DNA of 64,000 bases from Parcubacteria group bacterium (lineage in GTDB: Bacteria; Patescibacteriota; Minisyncoccia; Moranbacterales; UBA11712). Shown piece after piece: positions 10,346 through 50,553 of the stretch. The notes beneath the pieces were generated by a model that saw only the letters and a list, made by a program, of their open reading frames with translations, did not search any database and was not told the DNA's origin. The stretch covers positions 66,040-130,039 of the forward strand of contig JBAZXV010000003.1 of the NCBI GenBank assembly GCA_041659685.1, in the 5' to 3' direction. Numbering within the stretch: the first letter of the stretch is position 1; every line of letters starts with the position of its first letter. Position numbers and translations under genes: made by a program.

Positions 10346-13300
10346 TTATTTCTGCGGTTTCTTCTTTGTTTTTACTAAAGACACATAAAGCGTCGGAACA
10401 ACAAAAAGAGTGAAAAACGAAGAAATAGACAGTCCGAAAATTATGGCGCTCCCGAGCGAACGCCAGAGTTCGTTGGAAAGGGTGATTGGAATAATGCCGG
10501 CAATTGTGCAAAAGGAGGTGATGAAAATAGCCTCCAATCTTGATTTTCCGGCATCAATGGCCGCTTCTTCAAAAGGAATCCCGAATCGGATATTGAGATT
10601 AATCTTATCAATAAGAATTATCGCGTTTTTCACCACAATCCCGAAAAGAGCCAGAATGCCGATAAGCCCGGGAAAACTCAGGTTAACGCCGAAAATTGCC
10701 ATGCCGATAAAAACTCCAATGAGCGCGAGCGGCAAAGTGACAAGAACTATCATCGCTTCAATGAATGAATCAAACTGAATGACCAGGGTAACAATAATAA
10801 GAGCCGCCGCAATTGCCATGGCGCGAATAATGGAAAGCACCGATTCCGTGTTCTGCTCATTTTCCCCTCCGTAAGTAATCGAATAACCGGCCGGTAATTT
10901 GTATTCCCTTGCGGCGTTATCCTGAAACTCCTTGACGACCTGCGTCGAACTGGTTTTCCCAGAAACTCCCGCCGTGAGAAGCACGGTCCGCTTCTGATTA
11001 ATCCGGGTTATCGTATCAACTGACGGAACAAGCTGGATTTCAGCGACGTCCTTAATATAAACGGGCTGCCGGGAAGTGTTCAAAATTTCCAGATTTTGAA
11101 TCGCATCGAGCGAAGGTATTTTTTTGTTTTCAAATTTAGCCACCACATCAATAGTCTTGTTTCCGGAAATAACGTTTGTCACGGTTGTCCCGGAAATGGC
11201 CGTCCGGAGAGTATTCCCCACAAGAGCGGCATTGAGCCCGTAAAGTTCCATTCGGGCCGGATCGAGATGAAAAGTATATTCAGCCGGAGAATTTTTGAGG
11301 GAAATGTCGCTGTTCACCGTTCCGGGAATGGAATCGAGAATGGGTTTCAAATCCCGCGCAATTTTATCGAGCGTCTGAAGATCATCGCCGGATATTTGAG
11401 CCTGGAATGCCGATCCTGAAGGCGGACCTCCGCTTGGAGCGCTCACGGATATTGTTGCTCCTTGAATATCGGCAAAATCGCTTCTCATCTTTTGGGCCAG
11501 ATCATAGGATGTAATGGACCTTTTCGACGTATCGGTCAGTTTGATTGTGAACGAAGCGGTGTTGGAAGTATTTTGCGAAACCGATATCCCTTCTCCCTGC
11601 GAACCGGGGTTTCCGACTATGGTCGAAAAATTAACAATTTCCGGATACCCCAGCAATCTTTCGTCTATTTTTTCGGCAATCAGATTTGTTTCGGAAAGAT
11701 CAAGGCCCGGCGGCCCTTCAACAGAAATGAAAAGCGTGTCTGAGTTTTGCGGAGGAAAAAATTCAGATTTTACGATGCCAAAAATGGGAAGGGCGACGGC
11801 GGCGAGAAAAAGAACGGTCGTAGCGGCAATTGTCGCAATGCGCCTTTTTCTTGTTCCCATAATTTTCCTCAGATATTTTTCATAAACCGGAAGCACCCGG
11901 TCGAAATGGACGATTCCGTGGATAATTTTTCCCCCCAGCGACGCTTCCTCCCGAATCCCCTGCTTTCGCAATTTTTCTTTTATTAATTCATCACTGTCCC
12001 ATTCCCTTTCCATCAGGAGTTTGTTTTGATTTAAAATATTTTTTCCGCTTCCGAAATACCACGCAAACATCCAGGCGATAATGAAAAAAGCCACTGCTGA
12101 AATTCCATAACCCGGTATATTATGCTGGAGCGCGCCGAATGATCCGGCGGCAAGCAGCAGAAAGACGATAATTATGTAAAACCTTTTCGTAAACCGGATT
12201 CGCTCCAGGATCGCCGCCAGGGGATGATTTATCATAAGAGCGACAAACAGCGAGGCAACCAGGGTTACCGAGACCGTAATGGGAATGGATTTTATAAATT
12301 CGCCGATAATTCCCGTCGAAAGAAGAAGCGGAAGAAAGGCCCAGACGGTGGCAAGAGTCGTCGTGGTGAGAACAATTTTAAAATCATGAAGAACAAGAAG
12401 CACGGCCTCCTCCGGAGTATATTTCCCCGTTTTCATATATTGCTTCGTGGCCGAGACAACGACAATCGCGTCGTCCACCAGAAGGCCAAGCGAAAGAAGA
12501 AGGGAGAATATCGAGAGGAAATTCAGCGACGTTCCGGTCATTTGCATAACACCGAAAGTTATGAAAAAAACGAGGGGGATGGCCAGCCCGGCAACCAGCG
12601 CTTCTTTGAGACCTACGATAAGAAACAGGATTATCATAACAAGCGCAAGTGTCAGAAAAAAGTCATGCTGGAGCTGGGTAAAGTCTTTATTTATCTCGTC
12701 GGCCATATCAAGCGTGGATTGGTATTCGATTCCCGGAGGAAAAGTTTTCAGAAGGGTTTCTATGGTCTGATTGGCCTGGTTGACCGTATCCAGAATATTT
12801 CCTCCCGCCCTTTTGACCACCTGAATTGTTACCGCGCTTTGCGGCTGTCCGCCCTCGATTGAAAACCGGGAAAGAACCGTTTTTTCAATCGCGGTTTCCT
12901 GAACGCTGGCAATATCCTTAAGATATACAATCGCCCCGGAATCCGCATGGAGAACCGGAACGTTTCCGAGAGCCACTGCGTCAAAAAAACGCGCGTCAGC
13001 CCGAACAGGATAGTCAAATTCTTTCCCTTTAAAATTGCCGGCCGGAATAGCATGATTCGTCGCGGCAACAGCCTGATTGGCCTGATCAACCGAAATACCG
13101 TAAAAAGTAAGTTTTTGCGGATCATATGCAATATCGAACTCATTCTGATCTCCCCCGTCGACGTCTACCTGGCGTATGCCGGGGATTTTTTCGAGTTCGT
13201 CTTGGATTGTTTCCGCGTAACCGCGCATTTCAAACCCGTTATAGGGGCCGACGAGCGCGAATGTGACAATGGGAGTGTCATCAAAAGATATTTCAATTAC

Positions 13301-13882
13301 CTGGGGATCCTGGGCGTCGTCGGGAATATCGCGCCGGATGTTCGGCAATTGGTCCCGAAGGCTTCTGATGGCATCTGTCAGATTCTGATTGGAATCAAAT
13401 TCAACCGTGACGGAAGAAAAAGAGTTGGTTGAGTTCGAAGTGATTTTATCGACACCGGCCACTCCGGAAATATCCGTTTCGATTTTTTTTGTGACCAGCT
13501 CCTCAACATCCGAAGGAGACGCACCCGGATAAGCATCGGTGATAACAGCAATAGGAATTTTTACTTCCGGGTTCGATTCTCGCGGAAGGCGAAAAAAGGA
13601 GTACAGCCCCCATGCCGAAATCACGACGACAAGCAAAGCGACTACCCGAAAACGAGTAACAAAAAAATTGAGCCACGTCTTGCGAAGCTCCGGGCGAAAT
13701 TCAAGTTTTTCAAGATAGGCCGAATCAGTTGAAGTAAAATTTTTTCCTTTCTCGGAATCCTGCGGCCCCGAAGCGGCAACATCTCCAGATTTATTGGCAT
13801 TGCCCTGATGATTCGCATCGCCAGTGGAACTTTTACGGTTCGGGTCGAAATCCGGCTTTTCTTTTTCCTGAAAATTATTCAT
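10346..13882 (-). CDS. Efflux RND transporter permease (AcrB/HAE1-like)
   Basis: 1178 aa. 12 transmembrane helices with two large periplasmic loops. Transmembrane segments are AcrB-like. Confidence 0.85.
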   Translation of the reverse strand: MNNFQEKEKPDFDPNRKSSTGDANHQGNANKSGDVAASGPQDSEKGKNFTSTDSAYLEKLEFRPELRKTWLNFFVTRFRVVALLVVVISAWGLYSFFRLPRESNPEVKIPIAVITDAYPGASPSDVEELVTKKIETDISGVAGVDKITSNSTNSFSSVTVEFDSNQNLTDAIRSLRDQLPNIRRDIPDDAQDPQVIEISFDDTPIVTFALVGPYNGFEMRGYAETIQDELEKIPGIRQVDVDGGDQNEFDIAYDPQKLTFYGISVDQANQAVAATNHAIPAGNFKGKEFDYPVRADARFFDAVALGNVPVLHADSGAIVYLKDIASVQETAIEKTVLSRFSIEGGQPQSAVTIQVVKRAGGNILDTVNQANQTIETLLKTFPPGIEYQSTLDMADEINKDFTQLQHDFFLTLALVMIILFLIVGLKEALVAGLAIPLVFFITFGVMQMTGTSLNFLSIFSLLLSLGLLVDDAIVVVSATKQYMKTGKYTPEEAVLLVLHDFKIVLTTTTLATVWAFLPLLLSTGIIGEFIKSIPITVSVTLVASLFVALMINHPLAAILERIRFTKRFYIIIVFLLLAAGSFGALQHNIPGYGISAVAFFIIAWMFAWYFGSGKNILNQNKLLMEREWDSDELIKEKLRKQGIREEASLGGKIIHGIVHFDRVLPVYEKYLRKIMGTRKRRIATIAATTVLFLAAVALPIFGIVKSEFFPPQNSDTLFISVEGPPGLDLSETNLIAEKIDERLLGYPEIVNFSTIVGNPGSQGEGISVSQNTSNTASFTIKLTDTSKRSITSYDLAQKMRSDFADIQGATISVSAPSGGPPSGSAFQAQISGDDLQTLDKIARDLKPILDSIPGTVNSDISLKNSPAEYTFHLDPARMELYGLNAALVGNTLRTAISGTTVTNVISGNKTIDVVAKFENKKIPSLDAIQNLEILNTSRQPVYIKDVAEIQLVPSVDTITRINQKRTVLLTAGVSGKTSSTQVVKEFQDNAAREYKLPAGYSITYGGENEQNTESVLSIIRAMAIAAALIIVTLVIQFDSFIEAMIVLVTLPLALIGVFIGMAIFGVNLSFPGLIGILALFGIVVKNAIILIDKINLNIRFGIPFEEAAIDAGKSRLEAIFITSFCTIAGIIPITLSNELWRSLGSAIIFGLSISSFFTLFVVPTLYVSLVKTKKKPQK

Positions 13883-13888
13883 GAGAAA

Positions 13889-15049
13889 TTACTGCGTGAT
13901 GCTTATTTCCTGTCCGTCTTGCACAAGCTTGCTCCCTTGGATTATTACCTCCGAATCAGGCGGGAGGTCGGCTTTTATATCGGCTGTTTCCCCTGTCACA
14001 TTGAGAATGTCGACATTAATTTTTTTTGCTTTTCCGTTTTCAGCGATAAAAATATAGTTTTCATTTTGCCCGACATTGATCGCAGAGAGAGGGAGAATGA
14101 GCGCTCCGGATTCGCCGGGGGTTTTTTCGACTGAAAAAGAAACACTGACAACGGTCCCGGAAAGAAGATCCGAATTACCCGGCTGCTTCGGATAGGCTTC
14201 GATTAAAAATCTTTTTGTCGCGCTGTCAGCCTGCGGAGAAATATTCCGCACAATAAAAGGAATTTCGCTTCCTTTATTGTCAGTCAAAGCAATCTCGAGA
14301 CCCCTTGAAACAGAAGACAGCTGGTTTTCATCGACATAAAATTGGACTTTCACATTCGCCGTTTTACTGACTTTGAAAAGAGACTGGCCGACAGAAATCG
14401 AATCTCCCGTTTCGACCATTTTTTGAGTGACATATCCGCTGATCGGACTTGTGATGAGATGGTCGTCAAGCGAGCCTTTATATCCCACCTTGGCGTTTTT
14501 GAGCTGGATTTCAGCCAGATCAACGGCCTCTTTGGCGGCATCTTTTTGCGTCTTCGTCACAGTCTTTTCAAGTGTCGGATTTTTTTTCTCGTAATCATAT
14601 TGGTCTTTGAGGTTATTATAGGTTTTTTTATCGAGTTCGAGTTGCTCCTTGGCCTGTTCGACGGATAATTGGGACTGCTGAACATCGGCGCTTTTAAATC
14701 CGCTTTCTCCGACTTTTTGCTTGTTTCCCGAATCGTCTATTCTTACAAGAAGCGAGCCGGCTCCGACGCGGCTTCCCAAGGAATAATTGACGACTGCGGC
14801 CGTTCCGGAAGATTTTGATGTTATCTCAATTTCCTGGTCGCCCGCTATTATAGCGGGATATTGGATGGTTTCAGCAAAAGACTGGCTATTCGCAACTGAC
14901 TGAACGGAAACATCCTGCGGAAACCTTGGCGGCTCTCCGGTGACGGGAGCCTGTTTTCTCGAAGAGCGAGCGAGAAAAATAAAAAGGGCCGCCACAGCGA
15001 CAATCAGGAAAAAAAGTATAATTCTCTGTTTAGATAAGCGTTTTTTCAT
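13889..15049 (-). CDS. Efflux RND periplasmic adaptor (membrane-fusion protein)
   Basis: N-terminal transmembrane anchor, coiled-coil segment and beta-rich C-terminus. Lies 7 nt upstream of the RND permease on the same strand. Confidence 0.65.
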   Translation of the reverse strand: MKKRLSKQRIILFFLIVAVAALFIFLARSSRKQAPVTGEPPRFPQDVSVQSVANSQSFAETIQYPAIIAGDQEIEITSKSSGTAAVVNYSLGSRVGAGSLLVRIDDSGNKQKVGESGFKSADVQQSQLSVEQAKEQLELDKKTYNNLKDQYDYEKKNPTLEKTVTKTQKDAAKEAVDLAEIQLKNAKVGYKGSLDDHLITSPISGYVTQKMVETGDSISVGQSLFKVSKTANVKVQFYVDENQLSSVSRGLEIALTDNKGSEIPFIVRNISPQADSATKRFLIEAYPKQPGNSDLLSGTVVSVSFSVEKTPGESGALILPLSAINVGQNENYIFIAENGKAKKINVDILNVTGETADIKADLPPDSEVIIQGSKLVQDGQEISITQ

Positions 15050-26518: not shown

Positions 26519-27166
26519 ATGGTGGAACCATTAGAAAAACCGAAAAATGGTGCCGGGGTAAACATATTTATCCTCTCCAGTTCCCTTTACGTCTCTTTCC
26601 AAATTTTCGCCAATATCCTTTCGACTAAAATCGCTTTCTTGCCGATTATCAATCTGGCAATCGACGGCGGAACGATAATTTATCCGCTGACGTTTACGCT
26701 GCGCGATTTCGTCCACAAGACTCATGGGAAAAAAGACGCGCGGCAGGTGATTATCGTAGCGGCCCTTCTCAACGCCGTCATGTTCGGCCTTTTCTGGCTG
26801 GTCGGAAAGTTGCCGGCTGACTCTTCCTGGGGATACCAGGAGGCGTACAATCAAATCCTTCTCCCTGTGGGAAGAATTGTCCTCGCCAGTATCATTGCCC
26901 AGGTCATATCGGAGCTTATTGACACAGAGATATTCAGCATAGTATACAAAAAGACGAGCGACATCCGGGCCGTTTTCTCCTCAAATTTAGTAGCACTCGT
27001 CTTTGACAGCTTCATTTTCGGATTCATCGCCTTTCTCGGAGCTTTGCCGTTTTCAACCGTAATGCAAATTGTCCTTGCCAACATCTTAATTAAACTCGTC
27101 ATCAGCACCCTGAGCGTCCCGACAATCAAGCTGGTTCCCCGCACGGCAAAATTTGAAGATATATAA
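26519..27166 (+). CDS. Queuosine-precursor transporter (YhhQ/VUT, DUF165)
   Basis: Six transmembrane helices. IYPLTFTLRDFVHKTHG and the C-terminal ANILIKLVISTLSVPT parallel E. coli YhhQ segments. Confidence 0.6.
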   Translation: MVEPLEKPKNGAGVNIFILSSSLYVSFQIFANILSTKIAFLPIINLAIDGGTIIYPLTFTLRDFVHKTHGKKDARQVIIVAALLNAVMFGLFWLVGKLPADSSWGYQEAYNQILLPVGRIVLASIIAQVISELIDTEIFSIVYKKTSDIRAVFSSNLVALVFDSFIFGFIAFLGALPFSTVMQIVLANILIKLVISTLSVPTIKLVPRTAKFEDI

Positions 27167-27192
27167 GAATATAATAAATACTATATAAAAAA

Positions 27193-27834
27193 ATGGACTA
27201 CCAAAAAGAAATTGCGAGGGCTCTTCTTGAAATCGGCGCGGTTGGTTTTAAACCCGAAAAGCCTCTCACCTTCAAGTCGGGAATAATTTCCCCCGTTTAT
27301 GTGGACAACCGCATTTTTCCGTGCCATCCGGAAAAACTTAAAATCGTCATTGAAGGATTCAGAGCTTTGGTTAAGGAAAAAAATATTGATTTTGATATGG
27401 TCGCCGGAATTGCGGTAGGGGGAATTCCTTACAGCGCTGTTTTGGGGTACGTCATGCAAAAGCCGTCCGTTTTTGTCAGAAAAGAATCGAAGGGATACGG
27501 AAAAAACAAACGGGTTGAGGGGGGAGACGTAAACGGGAAAAAAATACTGCTCGTCGAAGATCTGGTTTCAACCGGAAGCAGCAGCCTCTCCGGGGTCGAC
27601 GCTTTGCGGTCCGAGGGCGCGATTATTGATGATTGCCTTATTATTGTCAGCTATGAATTTAAAGAAGCGGAAGATAATTTCAAAAAAGAAAAAGTCAATC
27701 TGCATGCCTTAACTTCTTTTCCGGTTATTTTTCAAGAAGCTGTGGAAATGAAAATTATTACCGAGGATGTGAAAAAAATAGTTGAAGACTGGCTCTCTGA
27801 TCCCCACGGCTGGGCAGGAAGGCACGGATTTTAG
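27193..27834 (+). CDS. pyrE: Orotate phosphoribosyltransferase
   Basis: PRPP-binding motif KILLVEDLVSTGSS. N-terminal OPRTase-like hood. Confidence 0.75.
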   Translation: MDYQKEIARALLEIGAVGFKPEKPLTFKSGIISPVYVDNRIFPCHPEKLKIVIEGFRALVKEKNIDFDMVAGIAVGGIPYSAVLGYVMQKPSVFVRKESKGYGKNKRVEGGDVNGKKILLVEDLVSTGSSSLSGVDALRSEGAIIDDCLIIVSYEFKEAEDNFKKEKVNLHALTSFPVIFQEAVEMKIITEDVKKIVEDWLSDPHGWAGRHGF

Positions 27835-27858
27835 GTCGCGTAACGATTAGCGCAAAAC

Positions 27859-28491
27859 ATGGAGCAAACTATGGAAAAATTAAAAAACGAATACATCAAC
27901 GCTATTTATGCGGAGAAAGCATTTCTGGTGAAAGAAAAACCTCTTAGGCTCCACCATGGCGGAGAAAGCCATCTTTATCTCAATCATCGGGAATTTTTGT
28001 CGAAATACAAATACCTTGATCTCCTGTCCAATATCTATATTGAACTTATTCCAAAAGGACTGGAAAACTTCAAACTGGGCGCGCTTGATTCGCAGATGAG
28101 TCCGGTGCTTTGCGGATTGATTTCAGCCAAGTTGGAAAAAGATATTGTGATTGTGAAGGAGAATATCACTCCTTACGGCCTCGAGCAAAAGATTTATGGA
28201 AACCCAAGCGGCGAGATTGTGCTGATTGACGATATGACATCGACCGGAACAATGCCGATCAACGCGGCAAAAGCGCTCCGCGAAAAAGGCGCAACCGTAA
28301 AAAATCTCATTGTTTCCGCCTGCCGCGATCTCTCGGCAGTTGAAAATACGGCCAAGGAAGATATCAAGACTCTTTATGCCGCGACTTTTGAGGAAATTTT
28401 GAAAACTCTTTGGGAAAAGTTGAGTGATTCGGAAAAAAATACTGTTCGCAAAGAAATAGGAGAGAAAAAGTATAACTGGGAATTGAGATGA
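27859..28491 (+). CDS. Second type-I phosphoribosyltransferase (OPRTase-like paralog)
   Basis: IVLIDDMTSTGTM PRPP loop. Divergent from the neighbouring pyrE. Confidence 0.55.
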   Translation: MEQTMEKLKNEYINAIYAEKAFLVKEKPLRLHHGGESHLYLNHREFLSKYKYLDLLSNIYIELIPKGLENFKLGALDSQMSPVLCGLISAKLEKDIVIVKENITPYGLEQKIYGNPSGEIVLIDDMTSTGTMPINAAKALREKGATVKNLIVSACRDLSAVENTAKEDIKTLYAATFEEILKTLWEKLSDSEKNTVRKEIGEKKYNWELR

Positions 28492-28561
28492 AGATTGTTA
28501 CAGTATACTAGTATACTGTAACAAATATAATTTACACAGTATAATAATTCACAAAAATCGT

Positions 28562-29359
28562 ATGCCAATTATCGAAAAATACAACAAACGCGCGGAGAGG
28601 GTGAATTCCCTTGCCTGCGTCGGGCTTGATTCGGAACTTGAGAAAATTCCGGAGCGATTCAAAAAACAGGAAAATCCGCAATTTGAGTTCAATAAGTGGA
28701 TTATTGACCAAACCCATGAATTTGTGGCGGCTTTCAAGGCCAATATCGCCTTCTATGACCAGCGCGGGGATCAGGGAATTCGGGAACTCAAGATGACCGA
28801 GGATTATCTCAAGGAAAATCATCCGGATATTTTCCGGATTTGCGATTCAAAGAGAGGCGACATTGGAAATACAAATAAGGGATACGTCGAGGAACTTTTC
28901 GACTGGTTTGATTTTGACGCAATCACCCTGCACCCTTATATGGGAAAAGAGTCGCTTCAGCCGTTTCTCGAAAGAAGCGACAAGGGATGCATAATCCTGT
29001 GCCGCACCTCAAATCCCGGCGCGGGAGAGCTTCAAGATCTTCTTGTCGGCGATAAGCCGGTCTGGCAAATTGTCGCGGAAAAAGTGCGGGACAACTGGAA
29101 CAAAAATAATAATTGTATGCTGGTTGTCGGCGTAACCGTTCCCGAAGAAGCAAAAAAAATCAGAGAAATCGTTGGAGATATGACGTTTCTTATGCCCGGA
29201 GCCGGCGCCCAGGGCGGTGATATTGAAGCTACTGTTAAGGCCTCTCTCAATTCAGAAAAGAAAGGCTTTATTTTGAATTCCTCCCGCGGCGTGATATTTT
29301 CGGAAAACCCGGCGGAAGAAGCCCGAAAACTTCGGGATGAAATAAATAAATATCGATAA
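28562..29359 (+). CDS. pyrF: Orotidine-5'-phosphate decarboxylase (long type-2 form)
   Basis: N-terminal LACVGLDSELEKIP and DSKRGDIGNT with catalytic Lys. 265 aa. Confidence 0.75.
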   Translation: MPIIEKYNKRAERVNSLACVGLDSELEKIPERFKKQENPQFEFNKWIIDQTHEFVAAFKANIAFYDQRGDQGIRELKMTEDYLKENHPDIFRICDSKRGDIGNTNKGYVEELFDWFDFDAITLHPYMGKESLQPFLERSDKGCIILCRTSNPGAGELQDLLVGDKPVWQIVAEKVRDNWNKNNNCMLVVGVTVPEEAKKIREIVGDMTFLMPGAGAQGGDIEATVKASLNSEKKGFILNSSRGVIFSENPAEEARKLRDEINKYR

Positions 29360-31341: not shown

Positions 31342-31620
31342 ATGGCGCGAAAATTTCTAACAATGAAAATTTACGGGAAAGTCCAAGGCGTGGGTTTTCG
31401 GTTTGAAGCGGCAAGAAAGGCGAAAGAACTGAATATCACCGGATTTGCGAGAAATGAGGCCGACCATACCGTCTATATCGAAGCCCAGGGAGACCGCGAA
31501 AACCTCGATAAATTCCTGCATTGGTGCGAGTTCCACGCCCCGTCCCTTGCCAAAGTCACAAGAATTGAGTCAAAATTTTCAAACGATCTTGAAAATTATC
31601 AAACCTTTAAGATATTTTAA
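31342..31620 (+). CDS. acyP: Acylphosphatase
   Basis: VQGVGFR signature and GFARN motif. 92 aa. Confidence 0.85.
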   Translation: MARKFLTMKIYGKVQGVGFRFEAARKAKELNITGFARNEADHTVYIEAQGDRENLDKFLHWCEFHAPSLAKVTRIESKFSNDLENYQTFKIF

Positions 31621-31677
31621 TGAAAAGTATCATTAAAAAGAGACAGCCGGCGGCCGCCTCTTCATTCATTTTAAATT

Positions 31678-33045
31678 TTACTCTTCCCCGTCAAATTCTT
31701 CCATTTTAAATCTTCGGATCATGTAGGCAATTGGATTCTTTTTTGCAAGAATATTGAGAGCGAAATCAACCGCGTTCGAATCTTTCTCAATCGTTCCCAT
31801 GGGAAGGTCCGAAGGCATCCGAAGACTGCTCCATGCATCGCCCGGAAATGTTTTTATCGTAGCTGGCACAGAGATTACCGGCCAATGCGTGTGGGCCGCA
31901 AGTATCGGACCCAGCCCGTTGCTCATGCCGACTTTGGCGATGATCACTCCTCCGGCAGGAAATTCCCTTTCCAATCTTTTAAGTTCTTCAAGGCAAAGGG
32001 CGGTTTTTTTGTGACCGGAAATTATCTTTTCCACTACTTTCACACCCGGAATTTTGGGAACTTCAGGCATTTCGTCTTTTTCTGAACCGGTCCACAAAAC
32101 TAATGCCTGGTCGGATATTTTTGGAAAATCTTGCGTCAGATCGGCCACAAGCTGATATTTTGGTTCGATCATTTCCAGGTCTTCTCCGTCGCGGAAAGCC
32201 TGCTTGGAAAATTCTTTCCATTCGGGATCCCGCAAACGCCAGGAATCATTGTCAATTACATCGGCCACGACAAGCTCTCCGTCCTCGGTTATCCCGAATT
32301 CAATCTTGAGGTCGAGTATCCTGAAGTTTCTTTGCATAAACGCCCCTTCAAGAACCAAAAATGTTTTCTTCATGATTTCGTCCATTTTTTCAAGCCTGCC
32401 TGACTCTCCCAAAAGCACTTTCTTGCGCGATATTGTCCTCTTGAGATCGGATTTTTCATCCCAAACCGGTTTCCAGGCGAAAAGCGGCTTCCAGTTTTCC
32501 TCTTTCGGGTTAAGTATCACGGGATCATCCTGCTCTGAAGTAAGACCTTCAATTAATTTTTCACCGTCGATGACAACGCCCCCTTTAGTGGTCTTCAGAA
32601 AATATTCATTCGCGATGCGGGAAAAATAGTGAGGCGGCTCTCCCGCAGGAACTGTCATATGGGGATTTCTTTTGAGATAGCTTCCGAATGCATAGCGGCG
32701 CGGCACAGCCTCAACCAAAATCATTCGGCAAGGCTTGGCAACAAATTCCACTTCAGAAATTTGCCGCACAAAATGCGTGGGAATGCCGGCCTTTTTCAAA
32801 AGCTCAAAAACCCGGCAAGTCGTGAGATTGGAATTCCGGCCTTTACTTTTGAACTTTTTGGTATATTTAGGATCATTAAATGCGGTTATATCGTCCTTAT
32901 ACTCGACGATCACCGTTTTGGGATCATTTTTATTTTCCCAAATTTTTTTCGTTTTTCCCTCCGCGATAAGTTTCCCTTTTTGATGGCCAGGCATGGTGAT
33001 ATGGTTTATTAAATTAGAAAAAGGATTAAAATTTTCGAAAGGCAT
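31678..33045 (-). CDS. Bifunctional SAICAR synthetase (PurC) / PurE-type AIR carboxylase-mutase fusion (PAICS-like)
   Basis: N-terminal ~300 aa carry the PurC motifs EGKTKKIWE, LVEAVPRRYAFGS, LDLKIEFG and DVIDNDSWRLRD. C-terminal ~150 aa carry the PurE motifs LVLWTGSEKD and GLGPILAAHTHWPVISVP. Single uninterrupted 455-aa ORF. Confidence 0.75.
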   Translation of the reverse strand: MPFENFNPFSNLINHITMPGHQKGKLIAEGKTKKIWENKNDPKTVIVEYKDDITAFNDPKYTKKFKSKGRNSNLTTCRVFELLKKAGIPTHFVRQISEVEFVAKPCRMILVEAVPRRYAFGSYLKRNPHMTVPAGEPPHYFSRIANEYFLKTTKGGVVIDGEKLIEGLTSEQDDPVILNPKEENWKPLFAWKPVWDEKSDLKRTISRKKVLLGESGRLEKMDEIMKKTFLVLEGAFMQRNFRILDLKIEFGITEDGELVVADVIDNDSWRLRDPEWKEFSKQAFRDGEDLEMIEPKYQLVADLTQDFPKISDQALVLWTGSEKDEMPEVPKIPGVKVVEKIISGHKKTALCLEELKRLEREFPAGGVIIAKVGMSNGLGPILAAHTHWPVISVPATIKTFPGDAWSSLRMPSDLPMGTIEKDSNAVDFALNILAKKNPIAYMIRRFKMEEFDGEE

Positions 33046-33164
33046 ATTGCTTGGGAATCCAAATTTATCTGAAAATTTTCATTTTTGATTTGCATATGAG
33101 GAAATTTTCGGCTGTCAAATTTGAGATCAGAGTTTTATTTTGAAAAAATCTTTTATTCTTCTGC

Positions 33165-34469
33165 CTATCTTTTCTCAAAAACCCTTTTGAATATATAATC
33201 GACGTGCCGGAGCTTCTTTTCAAGGTCAAAACACCCGTCCAAATCTTCCCTGCTCAAATATTTCATCACTTTTTTGTCACGAATGAGCGCTTCCCGAAAA
33301 TCCTCCTTGCTTTCCCAGCAATTTTGGGCGATATCCCGGACAATCTTATAAGCCTCTTCACGGGGAAGGTTGCTTTTTTTCGCAAGAAGCGTCTGGACAT
33401 CCTGGGAGAAAACCAATCCCCTGGTAAGGAAAATATTTTCCCTCATCTTTTCAGGATAAATTATCCACTTTTCCAGGATGCCTGACAAACGGCTCAGCAT
33501 ATAATCAAGAAGAATCGACGCATCAGGAAGAAAAATTCTTTCCTGGCCGGAGTTTGAAAGATCCCGTTCATCCCAGCTGCTAATCGTCGCCAGGGCCGCT
33601 GCCGCATAACATCGCATCATATTCGCCATTCCGGAAACATTTTCGGCCGCAATAGGATTTCTCTTATGGGGCATAGCTGAAGATCCCCGCTGTTTTTCGG
33701 GATCGAAATATTCCTGGGCCTCAAGAATTTCCGTCCTTTGAAGAGTGCGGATGTTCACTCCGATCTTCTCGACTGTCCCGGCAACAATGGCCAGAACGGA
33801 AACATATTCAGCGCTGATGTCCCGCGAAATTATTTGCGAGGCGATAATGGGCCTCAGTCCTAAAATTTCGCAAGTTGCTTCCTCCACCCCGGGATCGAGC
33901 GTGTACATCCCCACCGCTCCGGAAATCTTCCCCACTGCGACTTGTTTTTCCAGTCTTTCCAGCCTGCTGTCTTGCCGGTTGAATTCGTCGTACCACCTGG
34001 CCAGTTTTGCGCCAAAAGTGATCGGCTCGGCATGAACCCCGTGTGTTCTTCCGATTTGAGGCGTATTTTTATATTTCAAGGCTTTTTCCTTGAGCGCTTC
34101 CTTTATTTTGTCGATCCGAATCCGAAGAAGTTTAATGCTTTCGATAAACTGAAGGCTGAGCGCCGTGTCTTGAGTGTCATAGGAAGTCATTCCGGCGTGC
34201 CAATAAGGACGAATTTCTTCCGGAAGCTGAGGCGAAGTATGCATCAGAAAAGCGATAACATCATGCCTCGTAATCTCTTTTTCAATCCGGTTTATTTCTC
34301 CGGGATCGATCCTTAGCGATTCAACCAAGTTTTTTGGAATTTTTACATCAAGAATCCCCAGGTTGACTTTGGCCGTAAGAACCGCCTCTTCAACCCTTGC
34401 CCAATTGCGAAATTTTGATTCTTCGCTCCAAATTCCATCCATTTCTTTGGTCGAATATCTCGATATCAT
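33165..34469 (-). CDS. purB: Adenylosuccinate lyase
   Basis: GSSAMPHKRNP signature. N-terminal MIxRYSxxEM typical of PurB. 434 aa. Confidence 0.9.
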   Translation of the reverse strand: MISRYSTKEMDGIWSEESKFRNWARVEEAVLTAKVNLGILDVKIPKNLVESLRIDPGEINRIEKEITRHDVIAFLMHTSPQLPEEIRPYWHAGMTSYDTQDTALSLQFIESIKLLRIRIDKIKEALKEKALKYKNTPQIGRTHGVHAEPITFGAKLARWYDEFNRQDSRLERLEKQVAVGKISGAVGMYTLDPGVEEATCEILGLRPIIASQIISRDISAEYVSVLAIVAGTVEKIGVNIRTLQRTEILEAQEYFDPEKQRGSSAMPHKRNPIAAENVSGMANMMRCYAAAALATISSWDERDLSNSGQERIFLPDASILLDYMLSRLSGILEKWIIYPEKMRENIFLTRGLVFSQDVQTLLAKKSNLPREEAYKIVRDIAQNCWESKEDFREALIRDKKVMKYLSREDLDGCFDLEKKLRHVDYIFKRVFEKR

Positions 34470-34941
34470 GCTTTATATATCAATAATAATTAGATTATCT
34501 CTTCTGTTTGTATTCTATAAGATTTGGATTTAATTGTCCAAATAAAACTGGCCAGCCCCGGAGGACTGGCCCAAAATGAAAAAGATGAAGCTAAGCGGGA
34601 ATAGGTCTTACGACACTTTTTGAGGTCAATTCTTGCGAAGGGCATCTCTCCGGCTGTCTGGTATTTCTTGACGGCGGCGACCACTTCCTCCCGAAATTTT
34701 TCCTGAACTTCGGCGGCCTCTGCAAATATCCCATTTTCCCTCCTCCGCTTTCGACCATGACTTTCTCTTCCGCAGGATATAAGTTAAAAACTTCATAACT
34801 CACTCAATGGGAATTATCAATGTTTGCGGGGCGAACTGTTTTATCCAAAATAGTATCCGATGACTATGTTTTCGCGTTTATGCTGTTTTTATGCTAATAT
34901 TTAATCAGAAATTAAAATACAAATTAGCGAGGAGGTGACTT

Positions 34942-35373
34942 ATGGATCCGACATATAACTATAATTACCAATACTCCGGCAATATGCCTCCGGAATCCGG
35001 CGCCGCCGCATTTGCTTTCGCCGGAGGAATGTTTATTTTTGTCCTGCTCGTTATTCTCGTGGTTTACATCCTTGTTGCGCTCTCCCTTATGAAAATTGCC
35101 GAGCGGACAAACACGCCTAACGCCTGGTTCGCCTGGATTCCGATTCTCAACCTCATCTTGATGCTTCAGATCGCCAATCGCCCGATGTGGTGGCTCATTT
35201 TCTGGCTTGTCCCGATCCTGAATATAGCGGGGATCGTCCTTAATTTCGTTATTTGGGTTGATATCGCCAAAAGACTGGGAAAATCGGCTGTCATGGGAGT
35301 ATTAGCGGTCATAATACCGATTATTTTCATGCCTTATCTCGCCTTTTCAAAAAGCGACATTCAGGCGCAATAG
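34942..35373 (+). CDS. Small integral membrane protein (hypothetical, DUF5684-like)
   Basis: Three or four transmembrane helices after a Tyr/Asn-rich N-terminus. Shine-Dalgarno GAGGAGGTGA upstream. Confidence 0.45.
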   Translation: MDPTYNYNYQYSGNMPPESGAAAFAFAGGMFIFVLLVILVVYILVALSLMKIAERTNTPNAWFAWIPILNLILMLQIANRPMWWLIFWLVPILNIAGIVLNFVIWVDIAKRLGKSAVMGVLAVIIPIIFMPYLAFSKSDIQAQ

Positions 35374-36656: not shown

Positions 36657-37127
36657 ATGGAAGAAGAAACAAAAAAAGAAAACGAATCCGCGCCGAAAAA
36701 AAGAAACCTATCCGTTTGGATAGCCGCCGCCCTGATAATCATAATAATCGGCATTTTTTATGTGACTCGCGGACGATCCATGTATACAGCGCCTCCCGCT
36801 CAAACTCCGGCCGCGAAGACGCCAAATGAATTATCAGCGTCGGATATTCAGAATATGAGGGTCTTTGAGATATCCGGAAAACCGTTTGAATTCTCGGTGA
36901 AGGAAATAAAAGTGAAAAAAGGAGACAAGGTAAGAATTAATTTTTCTTCCACACAGGGCATGCACGATTGGGTCGTGGATGAATTTAACGCAAAAACAAA
37001 AATCGTCCAAGCGGGTCAAAGCGATTCCATCGAGTTCGTCGCCGACAAAACCGGAATATTTGAATATTACTGCAGCGTGCCGACCCATCGCCAGCAGGGA
37101 ATGGTTGGAAAATTGATCGTGGAATAA
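36657..37127 (+). CDS. Cupredoxin-domain (blue-copper-like) protein, membrane anchored
   Basis: N-terminal transmembrane helix. Putative copper ligands GMHDW and YYCSVPTHRQQGM (C-x4-H-x4-M). Confidence 0.6.
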   Translation: MEEETKKENESAPKKRNLSVWIAAALIIIIIGIFYVTRGRSMYTAPPAQTPAAKTPNELSASDIQNMRVFEISGKPFEFSVKEIKVKKGDKVRINFSSTQGMHDWVVDEFNAKTKIVQAGQSDSIEFVADKTGIFEYYCSVPTHRQQGMVGKLIVE

Positions 37128-47104: not shown

Positions 47105-49381
47105 TTACTTCCGATAAATCCTCAAACTGTTCGCCACCACCGAAACGGAGCTTGCCGCCATGGCTCCCGCGGCGATAATCGGATTAAGAAGCCCTGCCAT
47201 GGCCAGTGGAATAGCGACGATGTTATAGCCGAAAGCCCAAAAAAGATTTTGCCTGATTGTCCTGAAAGTAAGTTTGGATACGGAAATCGCTTCGGGAACT
47301 TTTTTGAGATTGTTTTGCACCAGAATTATCTGCCCCGCTTCTTTTGCGATATCCTGAGCCGAACCCATCGCAATTCCGAGATCCGCCTGCACAAGGCTTG
47401 GCGCGTCATTGATGCCATCGCCCACAAAAACGACTTTTTCCCCCTTTTGCTGGAGTTTTTTCACTTCCGCCGCCTTATCCTGCGGCAGAACTTCCGCGAG
47501 AACATTTTTAATCCCCAGTTCTTTCGCGATATGTTGCGCTACTTTTTGATTATCCCCCGTAATCATTGCCATTTTAAGTCCCATTTCCCGGAACATTTTA
47601 ATAACTTCTTTTGTTTCGTTCCGCAATTCGTCGGCAATGACAATCGCACCCAGCGCATCATTTCCGTGAACGACAAACAGCTTTGTTCCGGATTTGTATT
47701 CATCCGAATCCAGAATCTTTTGAGCCCAGTCCGTGCTGATATTTTTGTCTTTCAAAAGCTGGATGTTTCCCAGAAGAAGCTGCGTTTGATGCTCCCGGCA
47801 AACCGCGGAAATTCCTCTGCCTCTTTCCTCCTTAATATTTTCCACTTCCGCAAATTCAATATTTTTTCTCCGCGCATAATTTGCGACGGCCTTTGATAAA
47901 GGATGTTCCGAATGCCTTGCAAGGCTTCCGGCAATCTTCATAATCTTTTCTTCCGCAATTTTTGATTTGTTGTTCCTGATTATTGATAATATTTCCGGCC
48001 TTCCTTTTGTGAGGGTCCCTGTTTTATCGAAAACGACCATAGAGATGTCTTTTGCCCGCTCAAAACTTTCCCCGCTTTTGAAAAGGATGCCGCTTTTTGC
48101 CCCTCTTCCGGTCCCCACCATAATGGCCGCCGGAGTCGCCAGACCCAAAGCACAGGGACAGGCAATTACCAGAACCGCCACGGCGTTGATCATTGCCAAA
48201 GTGAAATCACCGCGCAAAAAATACCAGCCGGCGAAAGTCAGAATGGCAAGAAATATCACTGTCGGCACGAAAATCTCCGCGATCTTGTCCGCTAATTTTT
48301 GAATCGGAGCTTTCGAACCCTGCGCTTCCTCCACGGTCCTGATAATCTGCGCAAGCACCGTCTCTTCTCCCACCTTCGTCACTTTTATTATGAGGACTCC
48401 GTCTTGGTTTATCGTCGCGCCAAAAACCGGAGAATTCTTTTTCTTTTCAACCGGCAAGGATTCGCCCGTGAGCATCGACTCATCAACGTTTGATTCCCCT
48501 TCCGCCACAATTCCGTCCAGGGGAATCTTTTCCCCCGGCAAGACGCGCAAACTGTCTCCCGTCTTCACTTCATCAATGTTTATTTCTTCCTCCCGATTGC
48601 TTCCCCGGATCACGCGCGCCTTTTTCACTCCGAGCTCAAGGAGTTTGCGCATCGCTTCGCCCGCCTGTCCGGTGCTTTTGGCTTCGAAATATTTTCCGAG
48701 AAGTATGAGCGTGATGATGATCGCCGCAGTTTCGAAATAAGCTTCTTTTCCGAAAAACACGGCCCAAAGACTATAAAAATAGGCGGCTAGCGTTCCAAGT
48801 GACACCAGCGTGTCCATATTCGCCCGAAATTTTTTGGCCTGGAAAAACGCCATGCGATGAAATCGGAAACCGAACCAAAAAACAACAACTGTTGCGAGCG
48901 CGAGATGCAGCCACATTACGAGATCGATTCCCAAAAGCAGTTTTCCCGACCTAAGTTTCACAAACATCTCAATAAGCAGGGGGAAGCTGAAAACAGCCGA
49001 CCAGAAAAAAGCTTGCAGTTTTTCTTTAGTATCCCAGCTCTCATGGCGGTGATCGCCGTCCGTATGCATTAAGGCCTGGCCCTGAGGAATTCCGGCGGCT
49101 TGTTCGCCGGAAGGGAAAGATTGAACTTTGAAATTTGAGTGGATATCATCATGCTTCGGAATGCCCGATTCTTCCACTATGTAGCCGTTGTCTATAACAA
49201 CCTGTTTCACATGCTCCTCCGTCAAAGCATCAGCGTCGTATTCAATATAGGCTTTTTTAGACGCAAAATTAACGGTCGCATCCAAAATCCCTTTTGTCTT
49301 CAAAAGTTCCTTTTCGTTCGACACGGCGCAGCTTGCGCAGGACATGCCTGAGATGGCTATTATAAGTTTCCTTTTCTGCAT
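47105..49381 (-). CDS. copA: Copper-translocating P1B-type ATPase
   Basis: [29 protein letters not shown] and TGD motifs. The alternative longer start at 49420 would overlap the upstream gene by 4 nt. Confidence 0.9.
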
Positions 49382-49416
49382 ATATAATATAGTTTTTTTC
49401 CCCCGGCTATTCACAT

Positions 49417-50553
49417 TCACTCAACGATAAATTTTCCGCGGACCATTCCCATCCAACAGCTGAACGGAATCGGGCCTGCCTTTGTCGGCGTGAATTCAAT
49501 TACATTATCCCCTTTTTTTATGTCCTCAGCAATGCCAAATCCAGGAATGACGATCTTACTGGTGCATCCCGTCGCTTCGTCGCCATTTATTGAAAACCGG
49601 ACGGGAATGTTATTTTTTACCCGCAAAACGCTCGGTTCAAATCCGCGGCTTGTGATTTTCATTTCAATGTTTTGGGCGGCGCCAAACGAAGAAGAATCAT
49701 TCACTCCTTTGCTCATTTTTTGATTGGGGACCGGAATTTTTTCGGGAACATCATTTTTCACGCTCCATATCGCAAACCCGGAACTGAATGTGTAAACCGC
49801 AAAAAGAATGACCATTATTCCGGCGGCCTTGCTGACAAAAGCCATCTTCTCAAGCTTTGCCAGCGAAGTGGCGGCGCCGAGAGCGAGAAGCACCGGCATT
49901 GTCCCCAACGCGAACGCAGACATGGCGAAAGCTCCCGCCAAAAAGCTTCCTGACGCCAGCGCAAATATTTGCATGCTCTGTGTAAACCCGCAAGGAAGAA
50001 AAAAAGTGATCCCTCCGAGAAAATACGGCGCCGTTTTGTGTTCCGATTCTTCCAGTTTTCCCCAGTACCTCACCAGAAATTTCGGCATTCTTATTCCCAA
50101 AGAGGAAATCGGCGGAACAAAGCCTAAAATATTAAGTCCCAGCCACGCCATGACAACCGCGATCAGTGTTGTATACGCCGAAATAAAATTGCCGCCCAGA
50201 TTCAGTTTTCCTCCAAAAAGGCCCAGGAGGCCGCCCAAAACAAAAAACGTCAGGATTCTTCCGACGTGAAATTTCAGGTTTGGCTGGAGTGCGCCGGACC
50301 AAACGCTATTTTTTTCGCTGCTTTTATATTTTTCCGAAAAAGCCACCACTATGCCTCCTGCGACCACAAGACATGAAGAAAACGAGGCGGCAATGCCGAT
50401 TAAAAACGAGATTCCAAGTGATATTCTGTCTCCGTATGCCCCAATGCCCCCAAACCATCCTGATAATTGGATGGCTCTATATAAAATTAGGACGGCAATG
50501 ACCGTTAAAAAGGCTTTCAGCCAATCCATCCGCCCGTTATTTGGGTTTTCCAT
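49417..50553 (-). CDS. Membrane protein (DsbD_2/TauE-like transmembrane domain) fused to a C-terminal cupredoxin-like domain
   Basis: Eight to nine transmembrane helices with SSCLV. C-terminal ~90-aa beta domain with C...CWMGM, as in small copper-binding cupredoxin-like proteins. Directly upstream of copA. Confidence 0.5.

Follow-up and report, generated by a model that had tools for sequence, protein, structure and literature searches.

A putative PAICS-type PurC-PurE fusion enzyme encoded beside purB in a Parcubacteria group bacterium, and its relatives in other bacteria

Enzymes of the PurE family fall into two classes. Class II members are 5-aminoimidazole ribonucleotide (AIR) carboxylases that have no need of PurK, and class I members are N5-carboxyaminoimidazole ribonucleotide (N5-CAIR) mutases that need the ATP-dependent PurK. 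Published accounts treat PAICS, and the direct carboxylation of AIR, as an animal or eukaryotic trait and ascribe separate PurE and PurC proteins to bacteria (PMC9376930, PMC10484210, PMC10912719). The same papers present PurK with class I PurE as the microbial route, a contrast that underlies proposals of PurK and PurE as antimicrobial targets, and an archaeal curation paper calls fused PurCE “common in eukaryotes” (PMC3261824). Our literature search found no paper describing bacterial PurC-PurE fusions, in a search where “PurE” as a term was swamped by the word “pure”. Here we analyse a gene, designated purCE, on the minus strand of a 64,000-nucleotide stretch of DNA (hereafter the window; positions 66,040 to 130,039 of contig JBAZXV010000003.1, assembly GCA_041659685.1) from a Parcubacteria group bacterium of the Patescibacteria, or candidate phyla radiation (CPR). 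We consider it highly likely that this gene encodes a bacterial PAICS-type bifunctional enzyme, converting AIR to 4-carboxy-AIR (CAIR) and CAIR to succinylaminoimidazole carboxamide ribonucleotide (SAICAR), with a probably co-transcribed purB next to it.

The purCE open reading frame (ORF) lies at window positions 31678..33045 (-) and forms one continuous reading frame of 455 aa plus stop. It matches two Pfam families above their curated cut-offs, SAICAR_synt (PF01259) at residues 27-287 (E=4.6e-40, 138 bits) and AIRC/PurE (PF00731) at residues 334-438 (E=3.8e-16, 59 bits), which bears out the first-pass annotation in its claim of a single PurC-PurE protein with the domain order of PAICS. The ORF as given is the longest possible reading frame. 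The real product is probably a 438-aa protein (31678..32994, -, with stop) that begins at M18 (MPGHQKGK...), the start in all close homologs (73-86% identity). Neither candidate ATG is preceded by a clear Shine-Dalgarno sequence, so the choice of M18 is made on homology. The protein is deposited as MFA5925853.1, from a 150-kb contig, under an NCBI name that covers the PurC half only, and JGI gives the exact protein the bifunctional name [quoted passage not shown].

Similarity to PAICS extends over the entire protein. The best sequence matches in the PDB were Bombyx PAICS (4ja0, 8e-51) and human PAICS (2h31, 4.5e-49), both covering the two domains, and each half prefers PAICS when searched alone against solved structures. 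The PurC half scored 120/117 bits against PAICS vs 86 bits against the best stand-alone PurC, and the PurE half scored 48/47 bits vs 32, 30, and 22 for stand-alone PurEs. The first-pass annotation had raised the prospect of a C-terminal half that fails to align to PurE; the AIRC match and the PAICS matches in both halves dispose of it. An AlphaFold2 monomer model built on a 63-sequence alignment has a mean predicted local distance difference test (pLDDT) of 92 and a predicted template modelling (TM) score of 0.92. Its top Foldseek match was human PAICS (6yb8, E=8e-34, TM 0.65/0.68) across the whole length of ~450-455 aligned columns, followed by 4ja0 (1e-30), then stand-alone PurCs, and then PurEs.

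Active-site residues were compared by mapping the human lists of PMC9376930 through an alignment onto the window protein and 84 full-length fusions. The human PAICS sequence used was checked: its residue names match those lists position for position, and its AIRc segment equals that of 2h31 exactly. Within the SAICAR synthetase (PurC) domain (ORF residues 18-285, 32191..32994, -), the human ATP, Mg, CAIR, and Asp residues G16-K19, T40, E97, K131, D137, K191, E193, D207, D212-R215, K228, and R232 are all kept, and they are conserved in at least 79 of the 84 full-length fusions. The matching residues of the window protein include the GKTK loop, E112, K151, D174, K247, E249, D262, D267-S-W-R270, K281, and R285. 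Contact residues A41/G42/N43 and D133 (human numbering) vary across the fusions.

The PurC half also carries a subfamily-specific insertion at ORF residues ~152-192 (32470..32592, -), delimited by alignment to human PAICS and by the AlphaFold model. It is 36-38 aa long, flanks the Mg-binding Asp D174, and is absent from animal PAICS, such that the spacing from FxK to KxEFG is 95 residues here vs 59 in animals and 53 in the ~424-aa bacterial fusions described below as group 3. DSSP applied to the model predicts a beta-hairpin plus loop for the insertion, with pLDDT 92-95. The first-pass description of a “eukaryote-length” SAICAR synthetase was therefore loose: the half is indeed long, at ~290 aa, but owing to an insertion that animals lack. 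Between the two domains lies a linker helix at ORF residues 286-316 (32098..32190, -), probably homologous to the PAICS linker. Its 31 residues align to human PAICS gap-free with 9 identical (29%), and K296, Y297, V300, and Q313 are invariant in 17 of 17 bacterial sequences.

The PurE domain (ORF residues 317-455, 31681..32097, -) has the features of class II. Its motifs are GSEKD, SGHK (343-346), GMSNGLGP (373-380), and WSSLR. Among these, SGHK and GMSNGLGP conform to the class II pattern (SAHK/GRSNGLGP in PAICS) and are invariant in the family alignment, and the class I motifs SAHR and AGGAAHLPG are absent. Catalytic and substrate residues S321, D324, S343, H345, K346, G373, S375, N376, and G377 are kept and are near-invariant in the 84 fusions. 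In neighbour-joining (NJ) trees of PurE, a distance method applied to ~150 columns, rooted on E. coli PurE and including one stand-alone class II sequence, the Treponema denticola PurE, PAICS, and all fusions fell into a class II clade with 97% and 100% bootstrap support, apart from the class I PurEs of E. coli, C. burnetii, and Saccharibacteria. Motifs and clade placement together settle in favour of class II the choice between classes left by the first-pass annotation. Since human AIRc is far closer to T. denticola PurE than to this domain (scores below), we regard the CPR PurE domain as a divergent class II member. Searches by tblastn with E. coli PurK and PurE placed purK and class I purE solely at loci whose PurC is a separate protein, and neither turned up in the 10 kb around any fusion. 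The window likewise showed no purK; the gene was present at 3 loci with stand-alone PurC and class I PurE.

Directly upstream of purCE on the same strand is purB (33165..34469, -), encoding adenylosuccinate lyase (TIGR00928, 410 bits vs a cut-off of 326), an enzyme that would act on the purCE product; the neighbourhood reported by the first-pass annotation is thus confirmed. The AT-rich spacer between them (33046..33164, -) measures 119 bp to the first ATG and 170 bp to M18, longer than in relatives (median gap -4 bp), and contains no terminator-like site and no Rfam match. Upstream of purB we found a promoter-like site (TGGACA-17-TAGAAT, 10/12 matches; 34512..34540, -) and, just upstream of that, a terminator-like GC-rich hairpin (34550..34571, -) that may mark the upstream edge of a purB-purCE unit; both are consensus matches. 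This arrangement, with no terminator between purB and purCE, fits an operon, and the two genes are probably co-transcribed. A TTGACA...TATGCA pair noticed by eye in the spacer, a candidate internal purCE promoter, failed the scanner criteria and was dropped. RNA control of purB-purCE by a riboswitch or another element was likewise rejected, with no Rfam match at the gathering threshold across the window and only a chance-level snoRNA match (E=0.19) in a permissive scan of 31400-35000.

We hypothesize that the C-terminal class II PurE domain would carboxylate AIR with CO2 directly to CAIR, without PurK and without ATP, and that the N-terminal SAICAR synthetase domain would combine CAIR with aspartate, using ATP and Mg2+, to form SAICAR. 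The purB product would then split SAICAR into aminoimidazole carboxamide ribonucleotide (AICAR) and fumarate. Together, purCE and purB would supply steps 6, 7, and 8 of a 10-step animal-type de novo purine pathway, the remaining pur genes presumably lying elsewhere in the genome. These activities are predicted from sequence; by analogy with PAICS, the protein may also form an octamer around a PurE core and channel CAIR between its sites.

Comparison with described systems places animal PAICS closest. The human (2H31/6YB8) and Bombyx mori (4JA0) enzymes are the nearest solved structures by sequence and fold, with 33-36% identity per domain, and share with the window protein the domain order, a linker that aligns gap-free, the class II signature, and the catalytic residues of both sites. 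The window protein differs in its insertion around the Mg-binding Asp, in having 5 fewer residues at PurE helix 1, in lacking the long C-terminal helix extension of PAICS, in replacements at R331, S276, and D133, and in being encoded in a probable bacterial operon with purB. PurE of T. denticola (3RG8) has the class II signature (SAHK, GRSNAL) and belongs to the same class II clade, but is a stand-alone protein of 159 aa that scores 22 bits to the window PurE half vs 102 to human AIRc. The E. coli-type set of PurC, class I PurE, and PurK shares the PurC fold and chemistry (target-normalized Foldseek TM ~0.9 to stand-alone PurCs) and the PurE fold; its genes are separate, however, and its class I PurE (SAHR, AGGAAHLPG) needs ATP-dependent PurK, whereas the window protein falls below the NCBIfam cut-offs for both PurC and PurE and no purK occurs within 10 kb of any fusion. 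Ade2 of fungi and plants, a PurK-PurE fusion, is likewise a PurE-containing fusion of purine synthesis, but its partner is PurK rather than PurC, its PurE is class I, and its architecture is unrelated to that of purCE.

Gene neighbourhoods in relatives indicate the pathway in which the family takes part. ORFs called in 80 GTDB loci were clustered, and the clusters were named from their matches in Pfam and the PDB. Relatives at 52-84% identity keep the purB-purCE pair. Of the 48 low-GC loci, 22 have purB immediately upstream and in the same orientation (the median gap given above), an arrangement seen also in L002, L006, and L007. Other commonest neighbours in the 48 low-GC loci were purL (11), purM (10, plus 5 of a type resembling PDB 3kiz), purQ (7), and purH (6). 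The closest relatives with readable flanks carry purL and purQ (L007, 73% identity) or purL, purQ, and purM (L009, 78%) within 2 kb of purCE. One low-GC metagenome-assembled genome (MAG) has a one-strand operon, purF-purN-[purD-purM fused, 841 aa]-purL-purQ-purCE (L036:1638-11272, +). With de novo pur genes as the commonest neighbours, and with this operon, we conclude that the purCE family works in de novo purine synthesis. The suggestion in the first-pass annotation of a partial or salvage-linked pathway finds no support at the level of the family, given neighbours purB, purL, purQ, purM, and purH and the purF-purN-purD/M-purL-purQ series in one locus.

Two further observations concern these loci. 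In addition to its PAICS-like fusion, the L036 operon encodes another eukaryote-like fusion, GARS-AIRS. A recurrent Pfam-negative neighbour of ~395 aa (L017:15712-16899, L009:11427-12599, L002:18841-20028) is a PurM-type AIR synthetase by its match to PDB 3kiz (E=1e-48), a type that would escape Pfam-based pathway surveys.

Several results weigh against a PAICS-type enzyme in the window. The NCBIfam equivalog models score well below their cut-offs, TIGR00081 (purC) at 92.8 vs 189.9, with the insertion splitting the match in two, and TIGR01162 (purE) at 60.6 bits vs 149.6; the protein is therefore divergent. At three positions the residue of the human active sites is replaced (R331->M374, S276->K323, D133->T153). 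The PurE helix-1 segment is shortened, the GSxxD-to-SxHK spacer having 18 residues where E. coli, T. denticola, human, and group-3 proteins have 23, and in the AlphaFold model beta1 and beta2 of the PurE fold follow each other with no intervening helix; this shortening could affect octamer assembly. Human AIRc scores 102 bits to T. denticola PurE vs only 47 bits to the window PurE half. Apart from purB, a Pfam survey of the 20 largest other ORFs of the 64-kb window revealed no further pur gene. Three rival explanations were considered. That the fusion is an artefact, in which a frameshift, a missed stop, or a chimeric assembly has made one ORF of separate purC and purE genes, was raised by the first-pass annotation, and its chance is now negligible. 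The source is a MAG, which made the check necessary, and no evidence in favour of an artefact emerged. An identical 455-aa product occurs on an independently assembled Logan contig, all 120 of the top 120 database relatives, from many projects, have both domains at 430-479 aa, the junction is gap-free in all 62 homologs aligned, the linker is gap-free against human PAICS, and the AlphaFold model keeps its high confidence through the junction. The identical independent contig and the gap-free junction refute the artefact in practice. A second rival restricts catalysis to the PurC half and takes the PurE-like half for a degenerate domain that serves as a scaffold or in oligomerisation. It draws on the shortened helix-1 segment, on a Pfam match confined to positions 26-132 of the 148-position model, on the replacement of R331 by Met, and on about a dozen family representatives whose C-terminal half is devoid of motifs. 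Yet the substrate-contact and catalytic residues S321, D324, S343, H345, K346, and S375-N-G377 are all kept in the window protein and most fusions, position 331 (human numbering) is R, M, or L among apparently intact members, and with no separate purE or purK beside any fusion, those operons would offer no alternative supply of CAIR. We reject the pseudo-enzyme on the retained residues and think it very unlikely.

The third rival concedes a functional enzyme but assigns it to a truncated route (AIR->CAIR->SAICAR->AICAR) working on host-derived intermediates or ribosides rather than to the full de novo pathway. As the first-pass annotation observed, the rest of the de novo pathway is not visible in the window: purB and purCE are the sole pur genes found in the 64 kb, and tblastn of the window with purL, purM, purQ, and purH from related loci returned no match, with purB the only hit. 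In some relatives (L004) the fusion stands alone among unrelated genes, and CPR genomes are reduced, with a complete module from phosphoribosyl pyrophosphate to inosine monophosphate, the de novo route, in only 32% of CPR MAGs (PMC11608272). Gene dispersal by itself, however, explains the absence of other pur genes from one window. L007 and L009 carry purL and purQ, and L009 also purM, beside purB-purCE, and de novo genes are the commonest neighbours in the family, including purF, purN, and purD in L036. We also know of no transporter or kinase for AIR-type intermediates in such bacteria. The truncated route is accordingly improbable, though less so than the pseudo-enzyme, and we retain the PAICS-type bifunctional enzyme: purCE is a real gene, very probably functional, and an ordinary member of its family.

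That family is widespread. Searched exhaustively with HMMER, 1.84 billion cluster representatives yielded 2080 matches at E<1e-3, of which 248 reached E<1e-30, and a GTDB species scan gave at least 546 confirmed loci encoding a purCE relative; most of the 80 loci examined hold full-length fusions, in several phyla. The first-pass annotation had implied that such fusions are rare in bacteria, and this does not stand in view of the GTDB loci, their spread over several phyla, the ~424-aa subfamily, and the bifunctional JGI annotation. Using motifs and indels, together with a further search that took a Woykebacteria protein as its seed, we defined three groups. Group 1, to which the window protein belongs, was found in Patescibacteria only and combines the 36-38 aa insertion with SGHK...SNGLGP motifs and a shortened helix-1 segment. 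In group 2 the insertion is ~28 aa long and the motifs are S[MVA]HK...SNGAGP; the hosts of this group are the Patescibacteria lineages Vogel-, Taylor-, and Staskawiczbacteria and the high-GC Verrucomicrobiota (including Chthoniobacter flavus), Xanthobacteraceae/Pseudolabrys, Tepidisphaerales, and Polyangiaceae. Group 3 proteins, from Armatimonadota, Eremiobacterota, Binatota, Acidobacteriota, and Woykebacteria, are ~424 aa long with no insertion and a full-length helix-1 segment, and are 40-44% identical to human PAICS over their full length. They represent the same fusion in bacteria at 29-38% identity to the window protein, but without its insertion, with a full helix 1, nearer to animals, and grouped in trees with eukaryotes rather than with the window clade. 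In the first HMMER search, the named representatives without the insertion were animals.

Particular members of these groups merit mention. Group-3 fusions P0298, P0332, P0301, P0302, P0312, P0319, and P0387 (Armatimonadota, Eremiobacterota, Binatota, Acidobacteriota) lie in some cases on contigs of 1.5-2.6 Mb. At the high-GC loci L046-L087 (for example L073, C. flavus, and L058, Pseudolabrys), the group-2 fusions are not beside any pur gene, and in four high-GC loci a TctC-family solute receptor lies near the fusion. Such large high-GC genomes may also hold canonical purC, purE, and purK, and the fusion there could be an extra paralogue. CPR-type fusions occur on low-GC contigs titled uncultured Gammaproteobacteria, Bdellovibrionales, or Hyphomicrobiales (L012, L017, L019, L023, L024, L027, L029, L032, L036), labels that look unreliable. 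Representatives P0145, P0153, P0175, P0181, P0215, P0231, P0238, P0245, and P0253 have an intact PurC half and a C-terminal half without GSxxD, SxHK, and SNG motifs; motif-less halves of this kind reflect either a degenerate or replaced PurE or frameshifted metagenomic gene calls.

Trees of the two halves bear on the history of the fusion. Both domain trees, which are distance-based (PurE alignment ~150 columns, a single stand-alone class II PurE), unite groups 1 and 2 in a clade (75% in PurC, 99% in PurE) and place eukaryotes with group 3. The T. denticola PurE branched outside the fusions at only 67% in the first tree and fell among them once group 3 was added, and for this reason we do not claim a single origin of all fusions. 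Of the phylogenies of each half, which the first-pass annotation had looked to, that of PurE secures the class II placement (97-100%). A single fusion origin common to bacteria and eukaryotes is plausible. The PurC tree places stand-alone PurCs of Saccharibacteria and Paceibacterota, which carry a window-type insertion, within group 1 (89% bootstrap). At L035, L037, L038, L039, L043, and L052, insertion-bearing stand-alone PurCs lie in purL-purQ-(purK)-purE(class I)-purM-purC-purB clusters. Their position within the fusion clade, in clusters with purK and class I purE, points to loss and replacement of the PurE domain in these lineages.

Taken together, we tentatively propose, at somewhat less than even odds for the proposal as a whole, that PAICS is no animal invention and that fused purC-purE(class II) is an old, widespread bacterial enzyme of at least three subfamilies in at least eight phyla. 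Under this joint proposal, the eukaryotic gene would have a single shared origin through inter-domain transfer, with a donor most likely related to the ~424-aa form of Armatimonadota, Eremiobacterota, and Woykebacteria. The insertion-bearing CPR form would be a derived branch, and the stand-alone PurCs, with their re-acquired purK and class I purE, would have arisen by loss of PurE within it.

The remainder of the window contains a varied set of genes; no tRNA genes were found in it. Plus-strand genes near purCE encode two phosphoribosyltransferase (PRTase)-like proteins, pyrF, PEBP, a nitroreductase, a deacetylase, and an acylphosphatase. The interval 26519-29359 (+) holds a Vut_1 transporter-like gene, tandem PRTase-like genes (27193-27834 and 27859-28491, the second without a Pfam match), and an orotidine monophosphate (OMP) decarboxylase gene (28562-29359). 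Genes for the last pyrimidine-synthesis steps (the PRTase-like and OMP decarboxylase genes) are found 2.3 kb away from purCE, reading in its direction. An AcrB-type resistance-nodulation-division transporter (1178 aa) and a HlyD-type adaptor are encoded at 10346-15049 (-), here in a Patescibacteria genome. A copper-handling set at 47105-50553 (-) and 36657-37127 (+) comprises an HMA-domain P-type ATPase, a DsbD_2-cupredoxin fusion, and a separate small cupredoxin-like protein, and these same genes are neighbours of purB-purCE in the 84%-identical relative L006.

The purCE family is recognised by automated annotation and not described in the literature. Naming by one half, as at NCBI, together with missed equivalog models can make purE look absent in CPR pathway reconstructions. 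The window instance is an ordinary, correctly readable metabolic gene, and the general spread of PAICS-type enzymes in bacteria is the more notable result. PAICS-type fusions occur commonly among uncultured bacterial lineages and in some cultured ones, making the contrast between animals and microbes less clean than stated, and the question of where animal PAICS came from is opened to phylogenetic testing. If the joint proposal on that origin is true, many bacteria would run a PurK-free, 10-step “animal” pathway of purine synthesis.

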